Assembly (NCBI GenBank): GCA_044356325.1
Contig: JBIKWJ010000001.1
Location: forward strand, 56,305 to 120,304
Length of the DNA stretch: 64,000 bases
Source of the DNA: Minisyncoccia bacterium
GTDB lineage: Bacteria > Patescibacteriota > Minisyncoccia > SW-4-49-11
Reading direction: 5' to 3'
Below are positions 1-62,392 of this stretch, piece after piece. Both the position numbers and the translations under genes were made by a program. The notes under the pieces were generated by a model. It ran no database searches and was not told where the DNA came from. It saw nothing but the letters and a program-made list of their open reading frames with translations. Each line of letters starts with the position of its first letter. Positions within the stretch are counted from its first letter, which is position 1.

Positions 1-1128
1 ACGGTCATCCTCCATTGAGTCACCCAATTCACTACGTCGCCTTTCATACGGGGTATGATCAGCAATGTAGATCCCGTCTGCTCGATTCGGCTTAACTCGA
101 ATCACAAAACGATCTCGACATGATCCCCGATGGCCGGGAACTTCGAGCGAATCAATCGCTGTATCAGGAGACACATCTCCAATACCGCACCAGAGGAAGC
201 CCTCATATGCGATCTCAGGAACACTCCCATCATTGGGGGTATCAAGTGATATAAGTCGATAACCACTTCCTGATAGAGCGTAACGATTCGCTGCATCCAG
301 CGCATTCATATTCTTCTGCCCTTGTTTGATTCGAACCACATCGCTATTTTCAGCGAAGCAGAAAATCGAACCAATTGAATCAGGAAAAGGAATTATTGCT
401 GGTATAGCGAATGTACCCACTTTTTCCTCGGGGATTGGGTGGGACACAATAATCTTGAACACAACTTCTTCAAGATAGTGCTTGAACTCTTCCATCACCG
501 TAGCGGTGCGGAAGAGTGTGGGCTCATCTCCCTCGGGATCGTACTCGCGATTGAGGTCGTTCGTATGAACCAGAAGCGGCGGCCGACGACCCGAATGAAT
601 ATGAGTCATCTGGGACAACTTTTCGGAGTCGTCAGTAAGAGCGGCGGTCAAAAAACCGATCGCTTCAAACCATGCCCCTGCCGTTGTTTGGCAGTCACAG
701 CCACCCTTGTACTCGAGGTACAACTTCGGCTCACCGCTGAGTTTACTGTTGACCTTCGAAGCGTTCATAAAGAGATCGCGGTCCCGCTCATAGTCGTCAC
801 CGACATAGAGATAGAAGGTTGGGCCTGACTCGTCATCATGGACGAGAATCATCTTCTGTGGAATCACGATTTCGGTTACAGCAGCTGTGTCATTCCAATG
901 ACCATCTGGCATAGTACGCTGTACGCGGCAAAACCAGAGTTTGAAATCCTGACCCTCAATCCGTGAAACTTTACGAAACTTTTGTTCTCCACTCCCATAT
1001 TCATGAAATTCCACAGTGACACCGGGAACTTGCCAATGGCGTTTCTCAAGCTCGCGAACAATTTGCTCGCAAACAGAATCAAATGGGAATTGAAGAGTAT
1101 TGGGATAAAGAAATTGCATCGTTTGCAT
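1..1128 (-). CDS. Hypothetical protein, 5' part only (runs off the window start). GC content about 52% against about 30% for the rest of the window, so probably foreign DNA.
   Basis: I translated the minus strand by hand from the ATG at 1126-1128 (MQTMQFLYPNTLQFPFDSVCEQIVRELEKRHWQ...) and found more than 370 codons with no stop, continuing past position 1. The ORF track omits it only because there is no stop inside the window. The plus-strand ORF 439..828 is antisense to it. No family recognised. Confidence 0.5.
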   Translation of the reverse strand, partial: MQTMQFLYPNTLQFPFDSVCEQIVRELEKRHWQVPGVTVEFHEYGSGEQKFRKVSRIEGQDFKLWFCRVQRTMPDGHWNDTAAVTEIVIPQKMILVHDDESGPTFYLYVGDDYERDRDLFMNASKVNSKLSGEPKLYLEYKGGCDCQTTAGAWFEAIGFLTAALTDDSEKLSQMTHIHSGRRPPLLVHTNDLNREYDPEGDEPTLFRTATVMEEFKHYLEEVVFKIIVSHPIPEEKVGTFAIPAIIPFPDSIGSIFCFAENSDVVRIKQGQKNMNALDAANRYALSGSGYRLISLDTPNDGSVPEIAYEGFLWCGIGDVSPDTAIDSLEVPGHRGSCRDRFVIRVKPNRADGIYIADHTPYERRRSELGDSMEDDR

Positions 1129-1253: not shown

Positions 1254-1296
1254 TGCGGAGAGAAAGGGATTAGAACTCGTCGCAAATGGGATTTGC
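1254..1296 (-). repeat. Partial duplicate of the tRNA-Ser 3' end (about 25 nt) fused to the hairpin gcaaatgggatttgc. Looks like an att-site remnant.
   Basis: Plus-strand tgcggagagaaagggattagaactc is close to the 3' end of the intact tRNA-Ser at 1521-1545 (tgcggagagagagagatttgaactc). It is followed by gtc and then the perfect inverted repeat gcaaat-ggg-atttgc. Confidence 0.5.
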
Positions 1297-1520
1297 TCCT
1301 TGAAACCACCTCAGTTTCCTCAATACCCCTACAACCCCATCTCGGACACCCACGGTTTCCGACATTCGGAGCAAGCACCTCACTGCCTTCCTCTCTAGGG
1401 GTATTGATTACATCCTCCACGGGAAACTACCGTTTCCCGACCCCTTCCCTGACTTCAAATCTCTCCCAACTGCTACACATAATATAAAAAATTGGGGATA
1501 TACCCCATTTTCTATATTTG

Positions 1521-1609
1521 CGGAGAGAGAGAGATTTGAACTCTCGATAGGTTTGACCCTATACTGCGTTTCGAATGCAGCGCAATAAACCGGACTATGC
1601 GATCTCTCC
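1521..1609 (-). tRNA. tRNA-Ser (anticodon CGA), type II with a long variable arm.
   Basis: Reverse complement is GGAGAGATCGCATAGTCCGGTTTATTGCGCTGCATTCGAAACGCAG...GAGAGTTCAAATCTCTCTCTCTCCG. The 7 bp acceptor stem pairs GGAGAGA with TCTCTCC, the anticodon loop is TTCGAAA, and the T-loop is TTCAAAT. It is followed on the minus strand by the weak hairpin GGGGtatatCCCC and a T-run. Confidence 0.8.
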
Positions 1610-14005: not shown

Positions 14006-14040
14006 ATATTGTTAATTTACATTATATATAGTATAGCATA

Positions 14041-14460
14041 TGAATAAGGTGAGAAAAATCCTAGGTAAACTAGGAGTTATGTAGGGGCGACCTTGTAGTC
14101 GCCTGCACTATTATGTCCTCCTTTCTACATACGGTAGACAAGTGGAGGGGGTGGCCGTCAGGCCAGAGGTGGACTAAGCTAAATTCCCCTCTTGAGGGGT
14201 ACCGTCGTTAGATGGTGGGGTGGAATATTTTTGTAACTTGAGTTTGTGCCCCCCTTCGCCTGCCTGCGGTAGGCAGGGAGGGGGAAGCCTGAAAGACGGG
14301 GGTGGATAGAATCAAAACTAAAGTATATTTGATAATCATATTGAATTTGAGAATATAGGTTTTTAATTATCCACACCCACCGCAAGCGGTTCCCCCTCTC
14401 CAAAGAGGGACATAAGACAGGCAACTGAAAGGTCACCCCTACGAAATGCATAATTTACAA
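14041..14460. repeat. GC-rich interspersed repeat, copy A (composite and degenerate MITE-like element).
   Basis: GC-rich insert in AT-rich DNA. It shares modules with the other copies: gtaggggcgacctt, ggtggccgtcaggccagaggtgga, cctgcctgcggtaggcaggga, ttcccctcttgaggggtaccgtcg and aaggtcacccctac. A hairpin ccccgtaatttacgggg plus T-run follows at 14476-14505. Confidence 0.6.
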
Positions 14461-14503
14461 TTGCCAACTACACCCCACCCCGTAATTTACGGGGTGTTTT
14501 TCT

Positions 14504-15342: not shown

Positions 15343-15380
15343 TGCGCAGAAGAGAGACTTGAGTCGCAAATGGGATTTGC
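15343..15380 (-). repeat. Partial duplicate of the tRNA-Leu 3' end fused to the same hairpin gcaaatgggatttgc seen at 1282-1296.
   Basis: Plus-strand tgcgcagaagagagacttgagtc is close to the 3' end of tRNA-Leu at 16485-16507 (tgcgcagaagaggacttgaacctc). It is followed immediately by gcaaatgggatttgc. Confidence 0.5.
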
Positions 15381-15451
15381 TATATAGTGTCTAGAATAGC
15401 CTAAAATAGTATATAAAAAAAGGTTTTCCATATTAAATTACTAGCTTACAA

Positions 15452-16342
15452 CTAGTAACTATCCCTCGTATATACCCTTTTTCTAAGTTTAAAAATCATC
15501 CCCGGGAAATTGTATGTTACTGTACCATCTCTTTCTATTTTAAGCCTGAGTGACTCTTTAATCTCATTGGATAAACTATCTGTATATTCAACCCACATTG
15601 ATTTGCCTAAATCTGTCATTTCTTTAGTTCGCATATAGGTTATAGTACCTTCAAAATTATCTATTTCCTCAAAGCAAAACCCAGCTTCATAAAACCATTG
15701 CTTTAATTCTTTTAATTTGGCAAAATACCGAGGGTATTTTTCTGTATCAATACTTTGATATTGTCCTGAGGCTAAATCTTTGATATTTACAATATCATTG
15801 AGAGCATTATGAGTAATATCAGTGGTAATATATGTTTGTAGAATAAATGTACCATTAGAGACTAAAACCCTATTAATTTCTTTTAAAGCTTTTATCTGAA
15901 GTGTTTTAGGCAAATCATATATAGCTGATCTGAGAAAAATACGATCAAAACTTTCATTGGGAAATGGTATATCAACAACAGAAGCTTGGATTTTTTTTAA
16001 TTCTTTTGGCGACATATTTAGCATACCTTGGCTAAAATCAAGTACATAATTTTGACATCTTGGAAAAAGCACCTTTAACCGCTTTGATAATAATGCAGTC
16101 CCACACATTACTTCAAGTATCTTCTGCCCATCTTCAATTTCTGATATTTCAATAATTCTAGGTATTAAGTCATCTCGACGAGTACCTTCATAGGCTTTCC
16201 CATTCCATTGGGAAGCAATCCTATCATAGCGCTTTTGAAGCTGAATATTTATAATGGATGAAACTTCATCTTTGATATTACTTTTTCTTTTTTTGAGTTT
16301 TTCTGAAATTAGAATATTTGTAGAATTATTAAATTTACTCAT
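15452..16342 (-). CDS. Class I SAM-dependent methyltransferase.
   Basis: 296 aa. Motif I is ILEVMCGTALLS, and a post-I acidic residue and the motif ...DRIFLRSAIYDLP... are present. Confidence 0.7.
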   Translation of the reverse strand: MSKFNNSTNILISEKLKKRKSNIKDEVSSIINIQLQKRYDRIASQWNGKAYEGTRRDDLIPRIIEISEIEDGQKILEVMCGTALLSKRLKVLFPRCQNYVLDFSQGMLNMSPKELKKIQASVVDIPFPNESFDRIFLRSAIYDLPKTLQIKALKEINRVLVSNGTFILQTYITTDITHNALNDIVNIKDLASGQYQSIDTEKYPRYFAKLKELKQWFYEAGFCFEEIDNFEGTITYMRTKEMTDLGKSMWVEYTDSLSNEIKESLRLKIERDGTVTYNFPGMIFKLRKRVYTRDSY

Positions 16343-16484
16343 ACTACAAAATTAAACTACTAATTTAAAATAATTATTTATCATTATAAAGATTTTATCA
16401 TAATTTTAAAATTTTTATAAAATACTACGTCTAATAATAAAATATACCCTTAAGGATAAATCCTCAAGAGCATATTTTCTATAG

Positions 16485-16573
16485 TGCGCAGAAGAGGACT
16501 TGAACCTCCACGGTACTTTGTATTTTCCCACAAGCACCTCAAGCTTGCGTGTCTACCATTCCACCACCTGCGC
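16485..16573 (-). tRNA. tRNA-Leu (anticodon GAG), type II.
   Basis: Reverse complement is GCGCAGGTGGTGGAATGGTAGACACGCAAGCTTGAGGTGCTTG + a long variable arm + GGAGGTTCAAGTCCTCTTCTGCGCA. The anticodon loop is TTGAGGT. Confidence 0.8.
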
Positions 16574-18675: not shown

Positions 18676-18806
18676 GCTCAGTCCACACCCGTCACTTCGT
18701 GCCACCCTCGCCAGCGAGGCCTGCCTGCGGTAGGCAGGGACAGTTATTTATGTCCTCCCTTGGGGGAGGTGTCCCTCCCATATTAATATGGGAGGGACGG
18801 AGGAGA
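18676..18806. repeat. GC-rich interspersed repeat, fragment B (inverted relative to copy D).
   Basis: gctcagtccacaccc...cgccagcgagg...cctgcctgcggtaggcagggacag...gggagggacggaggag is the reverse complement of the internal part of copy D (52650-52800). Confidence 0.55.
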
Positions 18807-37663: not shown

Positions 37664-39577
37664 TTATCTCCGAAACTTGATTGATCTTCCTTGTGGCATA
37701 TTGTTTTTTGTAGGTTCTTTAGGTACCATGAGATTTGATTTTACTTCAGATAATAATTCATCTAAAAGTCCATTTACACTTAATTTTTCTTCTTGGCTTG
37801 AGACATGTAAATCTTTTAGGAATTTTTCTTTGATTAAATATTCTGATTCTCCATAAGCAGAAGTTGATCTACTAAATACCTCTTTTAATTTTTTTGCCAT
37901 TATGGGATTTACATATTCTACGGGCTCAGTAGTAGGGATATCTTGCTTCACTTCTGGAATAACTTCTTCTTTTTTCTCCTCTACTTGTGTGGCAGTATCA
38001 GCGAGTTGGGTGGATACAGGAGGAACAATCTCCTCCTTAGGTATAGGATGATTTTCTATTTTCTCATCTATTTTGGGAGTAGCATCTATAGACTGTAATG
38101 GTAGTATAGGAGCGCTATTAGTCGTATCTTTAGATATAGGATTTTCTTGCTCTGATTTTGGATAAACTATAGGATTAGGTTTATTTGATGCATTATATGA
38201 CTTTGATTTATCATTATAGGGTTTAGAATAAGCTCTAGATTTGTTATCTCTGTCTGATGAAACTTTTGCTTGGGTCTCTGAAGATTTTTTAGTATCTATA
38301 TTCTCAATATGAGCTCCTCTCAGTGAAGATTTAACATTTCCATATGTTTGACGAGAAAATTCAATGATTTTGTCCCTATTGGATATCAACTCTGGCTCTG
38401 GATCAGGTAATGTATCCGCACTAAAAGGCTGACTTGTAGCTCCATCTATCATAAGTTTCAAATATACTTTCCATTTTGGAAGATTAACCAAATCCTCAAT
38501 AGTAAGAACCGGGCTAAATTCTCTCTCCATAAATTCAGCATCAGCAGCCCCAATCCTAAATACAATAGTAGTTCCCACATTTCCAAATACGGCACCTCTT
38601 ACAATTTCAGATAATTGCTCTACATATTGATGAGCTAATATAAGACTTAATCGATATTTGCGAGCTTCTGATAATATTTCCGCAAAAGAATCCGTAGAGA
38701 AATTTTGAAACTCATCAATATAGGCATAAAAATCTTGTCGCTCTTCTTCTGGTATATCAACACGACTCATAGCTGCAAGTTGCATTTTGGTAATCATCAT
38801 CGCTCCGAGTAATTGAGCTCCCCCCTCACCCACAGCTCCTTTAGAAAGATTCATAATCAAAATTTTCTTTTGATCCATAATTTCACGCAAATTAAAAGAA
38901 GATTTAGCCTGTCCAACAATATTACGTATAAGAGGAGAAGAAGTAAATTGTCCTACTTTATTTTGAATTGGTGAAATAGCCTCAACCAATAATTTATCCG
39001 TATATCCATCAAATTCATTAAGCCAAAATTGCTTTAATACAGGATCATGCATTTTATACACAATATTAGCTCGGAAATTCTTATCTACGAGAATACGCAT
39101 AATATCAAGCAAAGTACTTTCTTCATTTTCAAGCAAAGTCAATATGGTATTACGAAGAATATATTCAAGTCTTGGCCCCCAAGAATCAGCCCAAATTTTC
39201 TTAAATACTCCTACCAAACCATCGGATACAATATGTCTTTGATTTTCTGGCACATCACCAAGCACATTAAAAGCAATAGGAAATTCTAAATCTTGTGGAT
39301 TAAAATACACCACATCTTTTATACGATGTTCTGGAATATAATCAAGCAAGGCATCTGCTATATCTCCATGGGGATCAACAAAAGCAAACCCTGAACCATT
39401 TCTAATATCAGACACCGCCATATTGAGAAGTAATGAGGTTTTACCCATACCTGTTTTTCCAATAATATGCATATGTCGACGCCTATCATCTCGCTTAATA
39501 CCAAAAAGTCTTCCCTGACCATGAAAATTAGTCTTGGCAATAATGGTGATATCTTTATTTGTTTGATTTTCACTCAT
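37664..39577 (-). CDS. Soluble VirD4/TraG/TraD-like coupling-protein ATPase with a long low-complexity C-terminal tail.
   Basis: 637 aa. Walker A is HMHIIGKTGMGKTSLL and Walker B is YAYIDEFQNF. It also has the TraG/VirD4-type RKYRLSLILAHQYVEQL motif. It has no N-terminal transmembrane helices. The C-terminal roughly 230 aa is Ser/Lys/Pro/Asn-rich. Confidence 0.6.
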   Translation of the reverse strand: MSENQTNKDITIIAKTNFHGQGRLFGIKRDDRRRHMHIIGKTGMGKTSLLLNMAVSDIRNGSGFAFVDPHGDIADALLDYIPEHRIKDVVYFNPQDLEFPIAFNVLGDVPENQRHIVSDGLVGVFKKIWADSWGPRLEYILRNTILTLLENEESTLLDIMRILVDKNFRANIVYKMHDPVLKQFWLNEFDGYTDKLLVEAISPIQNKVGQFTSSPLIRNIVGQAKSSFNLREIMDQKKILIMNLSKGAVGEGGAQLLGAMMITKMQLAAMSRVDIPEEERQDFYAYIDEFQNFSTDSFAEILSEARKYRLSLILAHQYVEQLSEIVRGAVFGNVGTTIVFRIGAADAEFMEREFSPVLTIEDLVNLPKWKVYLKLMIDGATSQPFSADTLPDPEPELISNRDKIIEFSRQTYGNVKSSLRGAHIENIDTKKSSETQAKVSSDRDNKSRAYSKPYNDKSKSYNASNKPNPIVYPKSEQENPISKDTTNSAPILPLQSIDATPKIDEKIENHPIPKEEIVPPVSTQLADTATQVEEKKEEVIPEVKQDIPTTEPVEYVNPIMAKKLKEVFSRSTSAYGESEYLIKEKFLKDLHVSSQEEKLSVNGLLDELLSEVKSNLMVPKEPTKNNMPQGRSIKFRR

Positions 39578-42065: not shown

Positions 42066-42123
42066 ATAATATCCCTATATAAAGACTTATTATACCAAAA
42101 TACTTATATATAGTCAAAAATAT

Positions 42124-42417
42124 TTGTGAGATGGGGAGATAGTAGACCAAACAGATTACTATACATTGCTAGCCTAAGGACCCTAGCTTGTCACAAAAAT
42201 TGTCCTCCTTTGCCTGCCTGCGGTAGGCAGGGAGGAGGTGGCCGTCAGGCCGGAGGTGGATAGAGTTCAAGTTTGTATATTATCCACCCCCGCCTTTCAG
42301 ACTCCCCCCTCCAAAGGGGGATAAAAGTAATAATTCTTTTGTTACGACAACATATGCTACCTTAAGGTCGCCCCTACACAAATCTCATTTTGTCTATGAT
42401 GTATCTCATCTTATTCA
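42124..42417. repeat. GC-rich MITE-like element, copy C.
   Basis: Nearly identical to copy E at 57708-58003. The right TIR is ...gtaggggcgacctt...tgtctatgatgtatctcatcttattca and the left TIR is tttgtgagatggggagatagtagacc. The core contains ttgcctgcctgcggtaggcagggaggaggtggccgtcaggccggaggtgga. Confidence 0.7.
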
Positions 42418-48363: not shown

Positions 48364-50277
48364 CTATTCTTTAAAATCTCTATTCTGATAATACCATTCA
48401 TATACTTTTTTAGTAATAGGTATGGTGGTTTGAAAACTTTCATCTCCCTCTTCTACGAGTACAATCATTGAAATTTTAGGATTTTCCACCGGACCATAGG
48501 ACACAAACCAAGAATTATTTTTCTCTTTACCCGTTTGAGCTGTTCCTGTTTTGCCAGCTGTCGTGAAAGGTAATGTTTGTAATGGATATCCTGTTCCATC
48601 AGTAATGGTTTGCCTCATACCTTCTTTTACTATAGCATAGTTTTCGGGAGAGATGGGTATATTTTGTAATAATTCTTTTGTTTTCATATTTTTTTCACCC
48701 CCATCTTCTCCTTTAATACCACTATATATATAGGGCTTATACAAATTTCCTCCATTAGCTACGGCATTAATTCCATTCAAAATTTGTAAGGGGGTTGCTG
48801 ACATACCTCCTTGCCCAATTGATGTATTATATGTGTCTCCCAAAAGCCAAGATTCATTTTTCGCTTGTTTTTTCCAAGCAGGATCAGCCACATTTCCATT
48901 AGATTCTCCAGTTAAATCTATTTGTGTTCGAGAACCAAATCCATAATAACGATAATACTCAGCTAATTTATCGATACCAAGCCCCTTTTGTTTATTGGGA
49001 ACTCCCCCTACAAAAGTATAATAAAATACATTTACAGAATCTGAAATTGACTTATATACATTAGTAATACCATGAATTTTCCAGTCTGGATAAATATAAG
49101 GTTTATTTGCATCATAAGGATTTTCTACAATTAATTTTCCTAAGGGGTCATTGATTGTAGTATTCGTATTAACAATACCCTCTTGTAATAAACCTGAAGC
49201 TATTATCGGTTTAATTGTTGAGGCCGGCGCATATTCTCCTCCAATACATCGATTCAATAATGGTTTATCTTTATCCTGAATCAATGCAGTATAGTCTTGC
49301 TGACTAATACCCTTACTAAATAAATTATTATCAAAGCTAGGCAAACTAACCATGGCAAGTACTTCTCCATTTTGTGGGTTCATAATAATACCAGCCCCCC
49401 GTGTTAATTGTTTTTGATTCAGTATTTCTTGTATGGAATCCTGTAAAACTTTTTGTAATTCGCTATCAATAGTCAATTGTATAGACTCTCCATTACGAGG
49501 CGATTTCAAAGGAATATCACTATTGCGTGGGTTTTTGAGTCCATATTCCCCTTTCAAAGGGGCCTCATATACTTTTTCTAATCCTAATTTTCCAATACTA
49601 TCATCCCTTACATAACGAGGATTAGCTTCAATATCAGCCTCAGATAATCTTCCCGTATATCCCATTAAATGAGAAAAATAAAAGGAATCTTTATATGTTC
49701 GGGTACTCGACTGTTTAAGCTCAAATCCAGGATATTTTTCTTGACTTACTTCAAAAGTAATTGCTTGTTCTTGTGTTATATTGTCAATTAACATTATTTC
49801 TTTGTCTGAACTCTCTAAAGCTTTCTCTACCAGTACATTATCGAGAGAAAAGAAAGCCTTCATATCGGCAATAATTTGATTTTTTTTCTCTATATCTGTT
49901 GGTAAAGCCTCTCGGTTTAATATTAAAGAGAATACTACCTGATTATAAGCTAAAATGATCCCATTTCTATCATATATATTCCCTCTTAAGGGTTTAATAT
50001 AACTTTGACTTACAATACGCTCTTGTGTTTTTTGTTGATTAGCTGAAGCTAAAAATTGCAATTGAAAAACTCTTGCCCATAATATACCTATGGCAACCAA
50101 AATAAGAATTGCTAAACCTATTAAATAGCGCGAATTATCGAGCCCCGAAATATACAAAGCAGAATTGCCATCTCGATCAAGATATAAGTCTTCTGGAGTA
50201 ATATCACTATCAATTAAATTCTTCATATATTTTATATTTATCAGCAATATACAAGAATATCGTAATAGTGACACCAT
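48364..50277 (-). CDS. mrdA: Class B penicillin-binding protein (PBP2-type transpeptidase).
   Basis: 637 aa with STIK (SxxK), SDS-like and KTGTAQ motifs. It is the last gene of the mreBCD cluster. Confidence 0.8.
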   Translation of the reverse strand: MVSLLRYSCILLINIKYMKNLIDSDITPEDLYLDRDGNSALYISGLDNSRYLIGLAILILVAIGILWARVFQLQFLASANQQKTQERIVSQSYIKPLRGNIYDRNGIILAYNQVVFSLILNREALPTDIEKKNQIIADMKAFFSLDNVLVEKALESSDKEIMLIDNITQEQAITFEVSQEKYPGFELKQSSTRTYKDSFYFSHLMGYTGRLSEADIEANPRYVRDDSIGKLGLEKVYEAPLKGEYGLKNPRNSDIPLKSPRNGESIQLTIDSELQKVLQDSIQEILNQKQLTRGAGIIMNPQNGEVLAMVSLPSFDNNLFSKGISQQDYTALIQDKDKPLLNRCIGGEYAPASTIKPIIASGLLQEGIVNTNTTINDPLGKLIVENPYDANKPYIYPDWKIHGITNVYKSISDSVNVFYYTFVGGVPNKQKGLGIDKLAEYYRYYGFGSRTQIDLTGESNGNVADPAWKKQAKNESWLLGDTYNTSIGQGGMSATPLQILNGINAVANGGNLYKPYIYSGIKGEDGGEKNMKTKELLQNIPISPENYAIVKEGMRQTITDGTGYPLQTLPFTTAGKTGTAQTGKEKNNSWFVSYGPVENPKISMIVLVEEGDESFQTTIPITKKVYEWYYQNRDFKE

Positions 50278-52466: not shown

Positions 52467-52597
52467 TATATTGTATATGATATTGAGTATTATGTAAACC
52501 TATATATTTTATACTATGGGAAACACTATATTTTGTTCTTATTTATATTATAATTAAAGTTCTAATATATTGATTTTATGATGAAACAGAGTTTGAA

Positions 52598-53009
52598 TAA
52601 GATGAGATACATCGTAGACAAAATGAGATTTGTGTAGGGGTGACCTTACAGTCGCCCGCAAGTCCTCCTCCGTCCCCTCCTATACTTTAGTTTGGGAGGG
52701 GACACCTCCCCCAAGGGAGGACAATAAAACTGTCCCTCGCTGGGCGAGGGTGTCGACGAAGTCGACGGGTGTGGACTGAGCTAATTCCCCTCATTGAGGG
52801 GTGTATCATTAAAAGGCCTATATTCTAAAATATAAATTTATTTTGAACCTATCCACCCTCCCCCTACGGGTACTCCCTCCTAAGGGAGACAAAAGCTCAA
52901 GCTCAAATATATCACAGGCGACTGATAGGGTGCCCCTACATAAGAACAATAGTGGAGGGATAAACCCTCCGCTACGAAAGTATAATTTGTCTACGATCTC
53001 CTCATCTTA
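52598..53009. repeat. GC-rich MITE-like element, copy D (the best-preserved copy, with roughly 27 bp TIRs).
   Basis: Left end tgaataagatgagatacatcgtagacaaaatgagatttgtgtaggggtgacctt. The right end, reverse-complemented, is tgtataagatgaggagatcgtagacaaattatac. The element is about 55% GC in a roughly 30% GC genome. Confidence 0.7.
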
Positions 53010-53086
53010 TACAGAGTTTTGACAAATAAAAAAAGCCCCACACGAATGCAGGGTTCAAAGAGCTTTAGCTGTGAATAGCAGGCAGC

Positions 53087-57651: not shown

Positions 57652-57707
57652 AGATTACGATACTTATATACTATTATTATAGTATATTTTTAGAGTTTTG
57701 TATAGAT

Positions 57708-58003
57708 CTGTATGAGATGAGGAGATGGTAGACACAACAGATTACTATACATTACTAGCCTAGGGTCCCTAGCTTGTCACAAAAATTGTCCTCCTTTGCC
57801 TGCCTGCGGTAGGCAGGGAGGAGGTGGCCGTCAGGCCGAAGGTGGATAGAGTTCAAGTCTTTATCTTATCCACCCCTGCCTTTCAGGCTTCCCCCTCCTA
57901 AGGGGGACAAAAGTAATAATTCTTTTGTTACGACAATATATGCAACTGTAAGGTCACCCCTACACAAATCTAATCTTGTCTACGATGTATCTCATCTTAT
58001 TCA
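57708..58003. repeat. GC-rich MITE-like element, copy E.
   Basis: Left TIR ctgtatgagatgaggagatggtagaca. The right end ...tgtctacgatgtatctcatcttattca is the reverse complement of the copy D left TIR. The internal sequence is almost identical to copy C. It begins 4 nt after the stop of the 58007 gene and ends 57 nt upstream of the ruvB start. Confidence 0.7.
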
Positions 58004-59387: not shown

Positions 59388-59404
59388 ATAATTTGTTATT
59401 AGTT

Positions 59405-59732
59405 GGCTTTATCATTCTCTAAATGCTTTGTTCGAATGCAGGGACTCGGTCACAAGTAATTTACCTGACGGTAAATTCTCGCTACCCCGTCTCGCCGTGT
59501 TCGCCTTGCGCATAGCACAAACTCACACATGGCTCCGACTTTCTCGCCCTGACTAAAGCCAATAAATTGGCTTTATCATTCTCTCGCTTCGCTGTTCGAA
59601 TGCAGGGACTCGGTCACAAGTAATTTACCTGACGGTAAATTCTCGCTACCCCGTCTCGCCGTGTTCGCCTTGCGCATAGCACAAACTCACACATGGCTCC
59701 GACTTTCTCGCCCTGACTAAAGCCAATAAATT
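59405..59732 (-). repeat. Two tandem copies of a 164 bp unit. Each unit contains an 18 nt duplicate of the tRNA-Gln 3' end plus a 9 bp-stem hairpin.
   Basis: Unit 1 (59405-59568) and unit 2 (59569-59732) are identical except for the 10 nt aaatgctttg versus cgcttcgctg. Each contains ttcgaatgcagggactcg, which is the tRNA-Gln 3' end. A third partial unit merges into the real tRNA. Confidence 0.7.
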
Positions 59733-59758
59733 GGCTTTATCATTCTCTCGCTTCGCTG

Positions 59759-59829
59759 TTCGAATGCAGGGACTCGAACCCCAATTGCTGGTGCCAGAAA
59801 CCAGTGTCCTACCGTTAGACGACATTCGA
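59759..59829 (-). tRNA. tRNA-Gln (anticodon CTG).
   Basis: Reverse complement is TCGAATGTCGTCTAACGGTAGGACACTGGTTTCTGGCACCAGCAATTGGGGTTCGAGTCCCTGCATTCGAA. It has the U1:A72 pair typical of tRNA-Gln, and the anticodon loop is TTCTGGC. Confidence 0.75.
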
Positions 59830-61540: not shown

Positions 61541-62038
61541 TTATCTCACCAAACTCTCTATATAATTCTCTCTATTTTGTATGGACAAAATAACCTGCCC
61601 AACTACTCCGTCCATTGCTTTTTTGATTGCTATATCCTCAAAATGCACTATTTCTAAATGTAAACTTTTCAGGAAATTTTCTCTTATTAGATCATATTCC
61701 CCTTTATCATTATGACTATCTCCATCTATTTCGAATACTAAACCTAATTCAGGGATCAAAAAGTCTACAATATAATTTCCTATTATAACTTGTCTATCTA
61801 TATCATAGCCTAATAGTTTTTTGTCCTTAAACGCAAGCCAAAATAATACTTCTGACAATACACCTGCTTGCCTTAATTCTTTTGCTTTAGTTTTAAGTCT
61901 GGGATTCTTTGGTAATTTAGAGTAATTATATTTCCACCCCGTCTTTGTTTCACAAAGCCACCCCTCAAGAGGGGAATTTTTTAATTTCATAATTTTATTA
62001 TATCTCAAATAAAGTATATCATAAGTTTTATTATACAT
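61541..62038 (-). CDS. DUF559 (Vsr-like endonuclease fold) domain protein.
   Basis: 165 aa. ...LRQAGVLSEVLFWLAFKDKKLLGYDIDRQVIIGNYIVDFLIPELGLVFEIDGDSHNDKGEYDLIRENFLKSLHLEIVHFEDIAI... matches the DUF559 pattern. Confidence 0.6.
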   Translation of the reverse strand: MYNKTYDILYLRYNKIMKLKNSPLEGWLCETKTGWKYNYSKLPKNPRLKTKAKELRQAGVLSEVLFWLAFKDKKLLGYDIDRQVIIGNYIVDFLIPELGLVFEIDGDSHNDKGEYDLIRENFLKSLHLEIVHFEDIAIKKAMDGVVGQVILSIQNRENYIESLVR

Positions 62039-62059
62039 TATATAAAACTATGTTTAAAG

Positions 62060-62325
62060 GTGGAATTTTGGTCTTGCAACATTCCCCTCTTGAGGGGTAC
62101 CGTCGGTAGACGGTGGGGTGGAGTATTTTGCAACTTGAATTTCTGTCTCCCTTCCTGCCTACCGCAGGCAGGTGGAGGGAGTACCCGCAAGGGGGAGGGT
62201 GGATAAAGTTTAATCTACAAATCTTATGTAAGAATTTTAATCTAATTATATTGTGCTAGCAATCCACCTCCGGCACGTTGTGCCACCTCCTCCCTGCCTA
62301 CCGCAGGCAGGCAAAGGAGGACAAA
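62060..62325. repeat. GC-rich interspersed repeat, copy G (rearranged, no TIRs).
   Basis: Carries the ttcccctcttgaggggtaccgtcg...ggtggggtggagtatttt module shared with copy A. It has two copies of cctgcctaccgcaggcagg. Its terminal section is the reverse complement of the copy C/E core (ttgtcctcctttgcctgcctgcggtaggcagggaggaggtgg). Confidence 0.55.
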
Positions 62326-62392
62326 ATAAGTATCATTAAAATATCTCCCTTTTGAAAGAATGGCCAGAGGGGGATTTTTTAGCCCCATAATT

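Follow-up and report, generated by a model that had tools for sequence, protein, structure and literature searches.

Two tRNA genes flanked by copies of their own 3' ends

We analysed a stretch of 64,000 nucleotides (nt) of contig JBIKWJ010000001.1 from a Minisyncoccia bacterium (hereafter the window), in which the genes for tRNA-Ser(CGA) and tRNA-Leu(GAG) are each accompanied by a small unit that repeats the tRNA's 3' end and carries a shared 18-nt sequence, GTCGCAAATGGGATTTGC. The window has a GC content of ∼33% and encodes aminoacyl-tRNA synthetases, ribosomal protein L19 and cell-wall genes. Its proteins recur on a 252-kb Joint Genome Institute (JGI) contig and on many strain-level contigs, and related DNA was found in Candidatus Paceibacteria/Parcubacteria assemblies. 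The features of the two loci are listed below with their evidence in brackets; module A is the folded sequence to which the 18 nt belong.

tRNA-Leu locus
16484–16573, minus strand: intact tRNA-Leu(GAG), the anchor of the Leu unit (ARAGORN; Rfam tRNA, 50.4 bits)
16427–16483, minus strand: tRNA-Leu trailer with a hairpin, limits approximate (sequence; BLAST against strain contigs; alignment)
15452–16342, minus strand: methyltransferase cargo gene, 296 amino acids (aa), class I S-adenosylmethionine (SAM)-dependent, Methyltransf_11/UbiE-like (Pfam, NCBIfam)
15363–15380, minus strand: terminal 18 nt of module A, the GCAAATCCCATTTGC hairpin plus GAC (exact match; same end in eight strain contigs)
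15343–15362, minus strand: partial tRNA-Leu 3' end, from T-loop to discriminator, with one extra base (sequence)

tRNA-Ser locus
1520–1609, minus strand: intact tRNA-Ser(CGA) (ARAGORN; Rfam)
1468–1519, minus strand: tRNA-Ser trailer with a terminator-like hairpin at 1493–1507 (terminator scan; sequence)
1451–1467, minus strand: tRNA-Ser T-arm in antisense (GGGAGAGATTTGAAGTC), forming the 5' arm of a foldback (12-nt exact reverse match at 1454–1465)
1279–1449, minus strand: complete module A, long form, with an optional ∼95-nt domain at ∼1318–1410 (sequence comparison, fold)
1254–1278, minus strand: partial tRNA-Ser 3' end, T-loop TTCTAAT versus TTCAAAT (sequence)

The 18-nt sequence occurs exactly twice in the window, at 1279–1296 and 15363–15380 on the plus strand. 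Allowing up to three mismatches gave no further match in the window, and two matches were obtained in none of 100 shuffles. Read in the sense of the tRNA it becomes GCAAATCCCATTTGCGAC, that is, the GCAAATCCCATTTGC hairpin and GAC, with the tRNA fragment (T-loop to 3' end) following directly. Both copies abut a partial 3' end of the upstream minus-strand tRNA. The Leu fragment, TCAAGTCTCTCTTCTGCGCA (15362→15343), matches the resident tRNA (TCAAGTCCTCTTCTGCGCA) from the T-loop onward apart from the one extra base, and the Ser fragment, GAGTTCTAATCCCTTTCTCTCCGCA (1278→1254), is identical to the 3' end of the resident tRNA-Ser (GAGTTCAAATCTCTCTCTCTCCGCA) at 22 of 25 positions. At Leu as well as at Ser, the intact tRNA gene at one end is matched at the other by a direct repeat of its 3' part. 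Beyond the 18 nt and the fragment (∼40 nt) the two sites share no sequence.

The exact matches and the aligned fragments bear out the first-pass annotation of this DNA, which had reported an identical motif fused to 3' fragments of tRNA-Ser and tRNA-Leu. That annotation also took the hairpin for the end of an element. The 18 nt are indeed the junction-proximal end of the unit, but they are only the tail of a larger folded module, which measures 171 nt at tRNA-Ser (1279–1449); at tRNA-Leu nothing but this 18-nt tail remains.

Organization of the tRNA-linked units

The tRNA-linked units share a common order. In the sense of the tRNA, a full unit begins with the 3' portion of the tRNA from the T-loop; a trailer containing a terminator-like hairpin, that tRNA portion in antisense, module A and a second sense copy of the portion follow in this order. 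Most units carry no cargo. Every complete unit has an antisense copy of the T-arm, often with more of the 3' end, before module A; examples are GAAGAGGACTTGA (Leu, L009), GAGAGATTTGAA (Ser-CGA, window 1454–1465) and AGAGAAATTCGAACTC (Ser-GGA). The tRNA 3' end, the palindromic trailer and the antisense arm together make up one long imperfect hairpin, of which the terminator-like stem is the apex.

The 5' (antisense) and 3' (sense) arms form a predicted duplex of −15 to −23.5 kcal/mol in eight of ten tRNA-linked units, the duplexes of L030 and L047 being weak (−8.8 kcal/mol). Among the six units tested against shuffled sequences, 0 to 15 of 500 shuffles gave a duplex as good. For the Ser-CGA unit of the window the value is −19.3 kcal/mol compared to a shuffled mean of −12.5 kcal/mol (15 of 500 shuffles as good). 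The sequence of the arms differs from one tRNA to the next, and in the four units located at tRNAs other than Ser-CGA (Ser-GGA, Ser-GCT and Leu), the best partner of each 3' arm is its own 5' arm. The minimum-free-energy fold of the Ser unit closes on the antisense and sense arms (z = −4.1, folded as RNA), and the minimal unit L012:603–800 folded as single-stranded DNA has z = −8.1.

In all cases the fragment adjoining the module departs from the resident tRNA in the middle of the T-loop (TTCtAAT, TTCGtAAT, TTCGgAAT), and the part common to fragment and tRNA begins at about position 58. The bases preceding module A vary (TCA, GAG, CTC, CCA, TCT).

Module A is a conserved folded sequence

The 18-nt sequence is the junction-proximal end of a conserved, GC-rich folded module of 82–171 nt, module A. 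Its short form of 82 nt reads GGGAAGGGGTCGGGAAACGGnAGTTTCCCGTGGnGGAnGTATTGAAACCGAGnGGTTTCAAGGA-GCAAATCCCATTTGC-GAC, and longer forms contain an extra domain of either 20 nt or ∼95 nt. For the ∼95-nt optional domain a conserved fold is predicted, and 8 of its 26 pairs show compensatory changes across ten sequences; in the short module only 1 of 22 pairs is informative, the sequences being too conserved for such a test. In an alternative structure given by RNAalifold, the 'hairpin' may instead pair with GGGAAAGGGG at the 5' side of the module. Module A matches no Rfam family. In L046 (4400–4560) the ∼95-nt domain is also present in inverted orientation directly after tRNA-Ser(GGA); therefore, sub-domains can rearrange independently.

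An exact-match scan of one genome per species returned 52 stretches, about 20 of which are chance matches in GC-rich coding DNA of unrelated phyla. The others belong to Paceibacteria, Parcubacteria and Saccharibacteria assemblies, with at most eight copies per assembly. A metagenome scan added ∼25 copies of module A.

The tRNA-linked copies share the orientation of an intact tRNA, behind which they lie at a distance of 130–330 nt, and a fragment of that very tRNA follows them, an arrangement present in at least six Paceibacteria/Parcubacteria assemblies. It recurs at four tRNA species: Ser-CGA (window, L002, L047), Ser-GGA (L019, L046), Leu-GAG (window, L012, L067) and Ser-GCT (L066, L092, L118). 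At Ser-GCT, L038 also has the tRNA end but is truncated at the end of its contig. The mosaic-linked copies sit within mosaics of short GC-rich hairpins and are followed by GGnGGAGGnGGAy. A motif that was frequent throughout genomes and had no preference for tRNA fragments would speak against tRNA targeting, as the first-pass annotation pointed out. Half of this was observed: the motif is a component of a repeat family, but its association with tRNA fragments is far beyond chance.

The tRNA-Leu unit carries a methyltransferase gene

The Leu unit of the window is composed of tRNA-Leu, its trailer, an AT-rich promoter region, the methyltransferase gene, 71 nt, the last 18 nt of module A and the fragment. 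It has no antisense arm and is without 64 nt of module A. This unit is a degenerate, cargo-bearing derivative, in which the methyltransferase and its promoter region stand in place of the antisense arm and most of the module. Its tRNA fragment marks the start of a gene region that varies between strains.

The methyltransferase matched Methyltransf_11 (E = 2.6e-12) and Ubie_methyltran (4.6e-8) and otherwise only Methyltransf_25/23/31 and UbiE-type models. The DNA-methylase families of Pfam and NCBIfam (DNA_methylase, N6_N4_Mtase, N6_Mtase, MethyltransfD12) gave no match, and a PDB sequence search gave none at E ≤ 0.001. Since all the NCBIfam matches are far below the family cut-offs, no specific function can be assigned. 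Judged from these matches, the protein is a generic class I SAM enzyme of small-molecule type rather than a DNA methylase, and the earlier suggestion of an orphan modification methylase is not supported. Its likeness to UbiE/COQ5- and BioC-like methyltransferases lies in the Rossmann-fold SAM-binding domain; it differs from them in belonging to a Patescibacteria-specific family and in matching below the NCBIfam cut-offs. This family has at least 64 members of 36–75% identity. True DNA methylases of the neighbourhood lie elsewhere, e.g. at L001 7032–8003.

The open reading frame (ORF) at 15452–16342 is real, and the claim that it is cargo agrees with two comparisons. In the close relative P_PACE2, tRNA-Leu is followed by a cargo-less unit and then by the downstream genes known from the window, and the methyltransferase is absent from the locus; the DUF1801 and 455-aa proteins of the flanks are 83–88% identical to those of the window. 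Homologues in three other genomes occupy unrelated contexts, with no tRNA adjoining. We therefore count the gene as cargo, by which we mean that it is inserted into the unit.

In L072, from another metagenome, a 71%-identical homologue is bracketed by a ∼22-nt inverted repeat (ATTTGGGGGCAATTTTATTTTTT / AAAAATAAAATTGCCCCCAAAT; 980–1040 and 1905–1960), which suggests that small elements of another type carry the methyltransferase gene as well. In L009 (784–1101) and L012 (1319–1636), part of an IS1595-family DDE transposase is inserted between the tRNA-Leu trailer and the methyltransferase; the window does not have it.

Cargo cassettes at tRNA-Ser

One further feature of the window belongs to the Ser locus.

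1–1128, minus strand: 5' part of a 431-aa ORF, 49% GC compared to ∼33% for the host (GC content; no Pfam family)

In the source contig, the cassette with this 431/434-aa ORF ends in cTAAATCCCATTTGCGAC plus another Ser fragment, and a 169-aa cassette retains the 3' two-thirds of module A. In the three independent cargo cassettes (methyltransferase, 431/434-aa and 169-aa ORF), the end is always (GC)AAATCCCATTTGCGAC with a fragment behind it, and two of the three keep just 16–18 nt of the module. That the cassettes keep the junction-proximal 16–18 nt argues that this end, and not the whole module, matters at the junction.

The 431-aa ORF, which has no Pfam or NCBIfam match, continues in L001 (8144–9439) and is flanked by tRNA-Ser fragments. 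Past it, just outside the window, lie a cytosine DNA methylase gene and an NgoFVII-like restriction gene; the relative L030 has a different restriction-modification system at this position.

Units at tRNA-Gln and GC-rich mosaics

A third tRNA gene of the window is associated with units of a similar kind.

59398–59829, minus strand: tRNA-Gln(CTG) and two 164-nt tandem units with module B (ARAGORN; sequence)

Each of the two units contains a 3' fragment of tRNA-Gln, a trailer and module B; a different module here follows the principle seen with module A. Module B was also found at tRNA-Ser in L002 and L047. The number of Gln units among strains is one or two: there are two in the window (59398–59725) and one in L075 (JGI contig Ga0453946_0000001), which otherwise matches. 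The window therefore stems from another assembly or strain than this contig. In L074 and L079, a GC mosaic repeat that has the same Gln fragment on its flanks forms the second Gln unit.

The window also contains six GC-rich mosaics (14040–14500, 18700–18780, 42120–42417, 52590–53015, 57706–58003 and 61960–62330), made up of hairpin units such as GCCTGCCTGCGGTAGGCAGGGA, GTAGGGGCGACCnnnnAGTCGCC and TTCCCCTCTTGAGGGG. None of the six contains module A; the same mosaics do contain it in relatives. Their similarity to Rfam whalefall-1 is weak (21.7 bits; gathering threshold 37). In L009, a 218-aa gene replaces the mosaic at 14041–14475.

Units differ between strains and stack in tandem

At tRNA-Leu, L009 and L012 have an extra cargo-less unit of 178 nt between the tRNA and the methyltransferase unit, which the window does not have, and its boundaries fall within the repeated tRNA end. 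In these two contigs, the tRNA-Leu trailer, there behind a tRNA fragment, provides the left arm and the apex of a long palindrome; both also have a perfect copy of the partial tRNA-Leu 3' end. In the window, the right arm of the palindrome in the tRNA-Leu trailer is replaced by the methyltransferase insert. The set of genes just past the Leu fragment varies between strains in three ways, and in L008, L010 and L013 the homology with the window breaks inside the fragment, at 15353.

At tRNA-Ser, the strain of the window has two tRNA fragments compared to four in L002, where the tandem fragments accompany the short form of module A, module B, the 434-aa cassette and the 169-aa cassette. Presence and absence between related genomes, with boundaries at the repeat, was observed for the 178-nt Leu unit, the P_PACE2 locus and the Gln unit. 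We concluded that units accumulate outward from the tRNA, that strains differ in them, and that genes can lie inside units or between them.

Proposed mobility of the units

We lean towards the explanation that these are small non-autonomous insertion units at tRNA gene 3' ends in Paceibacteria, moved in trans by site-specific recombination. It draws on the exact end shared at two tRNAs and its recurrence behind four tRNA species, on the presence and absence, tandem arrays and varying copy number of units among strains, on the end kept by the three cargo cassettes, on the complementary arms, the predicted fold and the compensatory changes of the optional domain, and on the lack of the methyltransferase at tRNA-Leu of P_PACE2. 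The anatomy of the units, their recurrence, the polymorphism among strains, the conserved fold and the nature of the cargo are observed; the chemistry of recombination, the enzyme and a single-stranded intermediate are the parts that we infer. A recombinase encoded elsewhere would recombine at or near the T-loop, as T-loop-targeting tyrosine integrases do, and the conserved 16–18 nt would be the element-side site. The excised circle would join ...CCCATTTGCGAC directly to the tRNA 3' end and its trailer. Because the arms are complementary, the excised single strand would fold to a dumbbell, the stem of which would mimic the double-stranded end of the tRNA gene; the substrate may possibly be folded single-stranded DNA, as in the case of integron attC or CTX-phage attP.

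A T-loop sublocation class of tyrosine integrases is known, and the junction in the T-loop and the restored tRNA end fit this class. Four properties fit a classical integrase poorly: one end for four tRNA species, the very small units, the tRNA-matched antisense arm and the folded segment. A more specific form of the proposal is an integron-/CTX-like cassette system at tRNA genes of Paceibacteria, in which the tiny units would move as folded single-stranded dumbbells imitating the 3' half of the tRNA gene, module A would be the handle of the recombinase, and retargeting would amount to a change of both arms. We regard this specific form as attractive but rather unlikely.

The first-pass annotation had envisaged a single family of tRNA-targeting elements or modules. 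This is supported and widened by the recurrence of the module end at Ser-CGA, Ser-GGA, Ser-GCT and Leu-GAG, with presence and absence between near-identical strains; more copies of the module lie away from tRNAs. The annotation had also suggested looking elsewhere in the genome for an integrase with this att specificity; no integrase was found at 1–58 kb of the window or near any copy inspected.

Several observations weigh against trans-mobilised insertion units. Mosaic-linked copies of module A are the majority in relatives (five of eight in P_PACE2), and they have no complementary arms. The Leu unit of the window, itself without the antisense arm, is identical in all 16 contigs that carry the methyltransferase gene and hence fixed rather than demonstrably mobile, and the methyltransferase region has a host-like GC content of 29–32%, compared to 49% for the 431-aa ORF on the Ser side. 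The 5' arms of Ser-CGA pair more strongly with Leu 3' arms (−26.4 and −27.6 kcal/mol) than with their own (−19.3 and −23.0 kcal/mol). A 1-nt difference between fragment and resident tRNA within the T-loop is not easily tolerated by a classical crossover. Homologous recombination between the direct repeats of 20–45 nt could generate every polymorphism seen. No recombinase was found among the annotated neighbours (window 1–58 kb), among the recurrent Pfam families listed for 101 ORFs of 28 Candidate Phyla Radiation (CPR) loci, or by Pfam in 17 further ORFs adjoining tRNA-linked copies. Finally, the modules are absent from IMG/VR viral contigs, and no excised or circular form was seen. Given that no recombinase was found and that the modules are absent from IMG/VR, any mobilisation would therefore have to act in trans.

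Other explanations of the tRNA-linked units

That the units are decayed classical islands appears unlikely to us. According to this explanation, integrase-bearing islands or prophages left attR scars and cargo behind, and the hairpin is a piece of the attP arm of one element. An intact tRNA with a direct repeat of its 3' end and a junction in the T-loop is the textbook signature of such islands. The 431-aa ORF with its 49% GC in the Ser array, and the restriction-modification system beyond it, could likewise be island remnants, and arrays of partial tRNAs with degenerate elements have been described for the tycheposon islands of Prochlorococcus. One module end is, however, fused to four tRNA species, whereas classical integrases are tRNA-specific (tycheposon paper). 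The minimal units of 164–180 nt recur intact across genomes, unlike random deletion remnants; decay does not explain an antisense arm matched to each tRNA, and no integrase remnant was found near the copies inspected.

The mosaic-linked copies bring up another origin, which we likewise consider doubtful. The units could belong to a dispersed intergenic repeat family, similar to repetitive extragenic palindromes (REP) and bacterial interspersed mosaic elements (BIME), enterobacterial repetitive intergenic consensus sequences (ERIC) or miniature inverted-repeat transposable elements (MITE). Such a family would be spread by a transposase, of the HUH/REP-associated tyrosine transposase (RAYT) type or another, or by recombination; it would land in hairpin-forming DNA including tRNA trailers, and the fragments would be by-products of duplication. 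Most copies in relatives do lie in GC-rich mosaics of short hairpin units, some of which start with GTAG as REPs do. The weak similarity of the mosaics to whalefall-1, the mosaic of L074 and L079 that is itself flanked by tRNA-Gln fragments and the swap of the mosaic at 14041–14475 for a gene in L009 point the same way. Moreover, a subterminal hairpin near the end of an element resembles the ends of IS200/IS605 and IS91. HUH transposition, on the other hand, makes no target duplication, yet direct repeats of 20–45 nt of the tRNA end are present. No conserved 4–5-nt target precedes the module, the tRNA-matched antisense arm is confined to the tRNA-linked copies, and no Y1/Y2 transposase was seen near any copy.

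Least probable, and in our view very unlikely, is a functional structured RNA, in which module A and its tRNA-derived closing stem would form a small or guide-like RNA with the arms used for pairing or targeting at the RNA level: the compensatory changes of the optional domain (8 of 26 pairs), the strong predicted fold of the Ser unit as RNA and a conserved scaffold joined to locus-specific sequence, superficially like TnpB/IscB guide RNAs and IS110 bridge RNAs, are set against the absence of a match to any Rfam family, of a TnpB, IscB, IS110 or Cas gene adjoining any of >35 copies and of a convincing promoter before the module, against a terminator-like hairpin between tRNA and module, against 16–18-nt remnants in the cargo cassettes that could not be functional RNA, and against a fold that is equally possible in single-stranded DNA.

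The following candidates were rejected. A reading of the hairpin as a handle of the Cas12/TnpB type, for which the tRNA fragment would act as guide, fails because no nuclease gene lies near any copy and the fragment is explained by its being a flank. A tmRNA, a two-piece tmRNA, a viral-type tRNA-like structure and a T-box had no match in ARAGORN or Rfam; furthermore, the 5' arm pairs with the T-loop and T-stem, there is no acceptor stem, and the T-stem of the fragment is broken. That the hairpin copies the variable arm of a class II tRNA is not supported, since tRNA-Gln belongs to class I and module B has the same role there. For a phage or plasmid origin, scans of IMG/VR with module A, module B and hairpin patterns produced one chance match in a GC-rich phage gene.

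Relation to known systems

tRNA-targeting integrative elements were reportedly treated by Williams in 2002, and the CIME literature is said to describe cis-mobilizable elements (CIMEs) that accrete in tandem. The present units resemble such elements, tycheposons and CIMEs in having a proximal intact tRNA, a direct 3' repeat from the T-loop and units pushed outward, in showing the greatest strain heterogeneity beside the tRNA and in having integrase-less units between att repeats. They differ in that none of the units was found to contain an integrase, four tRNA species are served by one end, unit size can be as low as 164–180 nt, and the junction is adjoined by a conserved folded module and an antisense arm matched to the tRNA.

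The order of CTX-type integration (target/att hybrid, cargo, inverted att copy, spacer, att/target hybrid) is the order seen here. As in integron attC and CTX attP(+), complementarity of the arms is imperfect and leaves a central base unpaired, and the units form cassette-like arrays with one site at the distal end of each. The target is, however, a tRNA gene here instead of attI or dif. In contrast to attC, there are no RYYYAAC/GTTRRRY boxes, the arms are derived from tRNA, and the cargo-bearing units have no inverted arm. Neither intI nor another recombinase gene was found next to tRNA-Ser, tRNA-Leu or tRNA-Gln, and no IntI or linked Xer gene was identified.

With REP/BIME, ERIC, Correia/MITE and whalefall-1, the units have in common multi-copy, GC-rich hairpin modules in intergenic mosaics and structure-preserving substitutions; they are set apart by the association with tRNA 3' ends, the duplication of these ends and by reaching no Rfam threshold. 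The right-end hairpin, located 3 nt from the junction, is reminiscent of IS200/IS605 elements, including palindrome-associated transposable elements (PATE) and REP-RAYT, from which the units differ by the variable bases before the module, the direct repeats of 20–45 nt and the fact that no transposase was seen near the copies.

Two further proteins of the window are recorded here. A 637-aa protein at 37664–39577 has weak TrwB/TraG coupling-protein domains, and a 637-aa ORF at 48364–50277 was called as a 620-aa PBP_dimer/Transpeptidase protein.

Significance

The units are a variant of tRNA-anchored integrative modules that is new in comparison with known systems, and we found none described for this lineage. 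The literature on CPR repeats, on folded att sites at tRNA genes and on whalefall-1 contained no description of this family. For annotation, the methyltransferase is not to be labelled a DNA methylase, and the partial tRNAs are not pseudogenes arising from decay of the resident gene.

CPR/Patescibacteria have tiny genomes with few recognisable mobile elements, yet the gene content of strains differs beside tRNA genes. Behind three tRNA genes of the window (Ser, Leu and Gln) lie small modular units in which the end of the tRNA is duplicated; they differ from strain to strain and enclose variable genes, among them a restriction-modification system and a foreign ORF of high GC content. If a recombinase acting in trans moves them, the units would represent a compact, retargetable integration module that would explain how islands are built in these bacteria. 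If the folded-dumbbell mode of movement is true, it would give ultra-small bacteria that rely on DNA uptake and have no conventional mobile elements a way to acquire genes.

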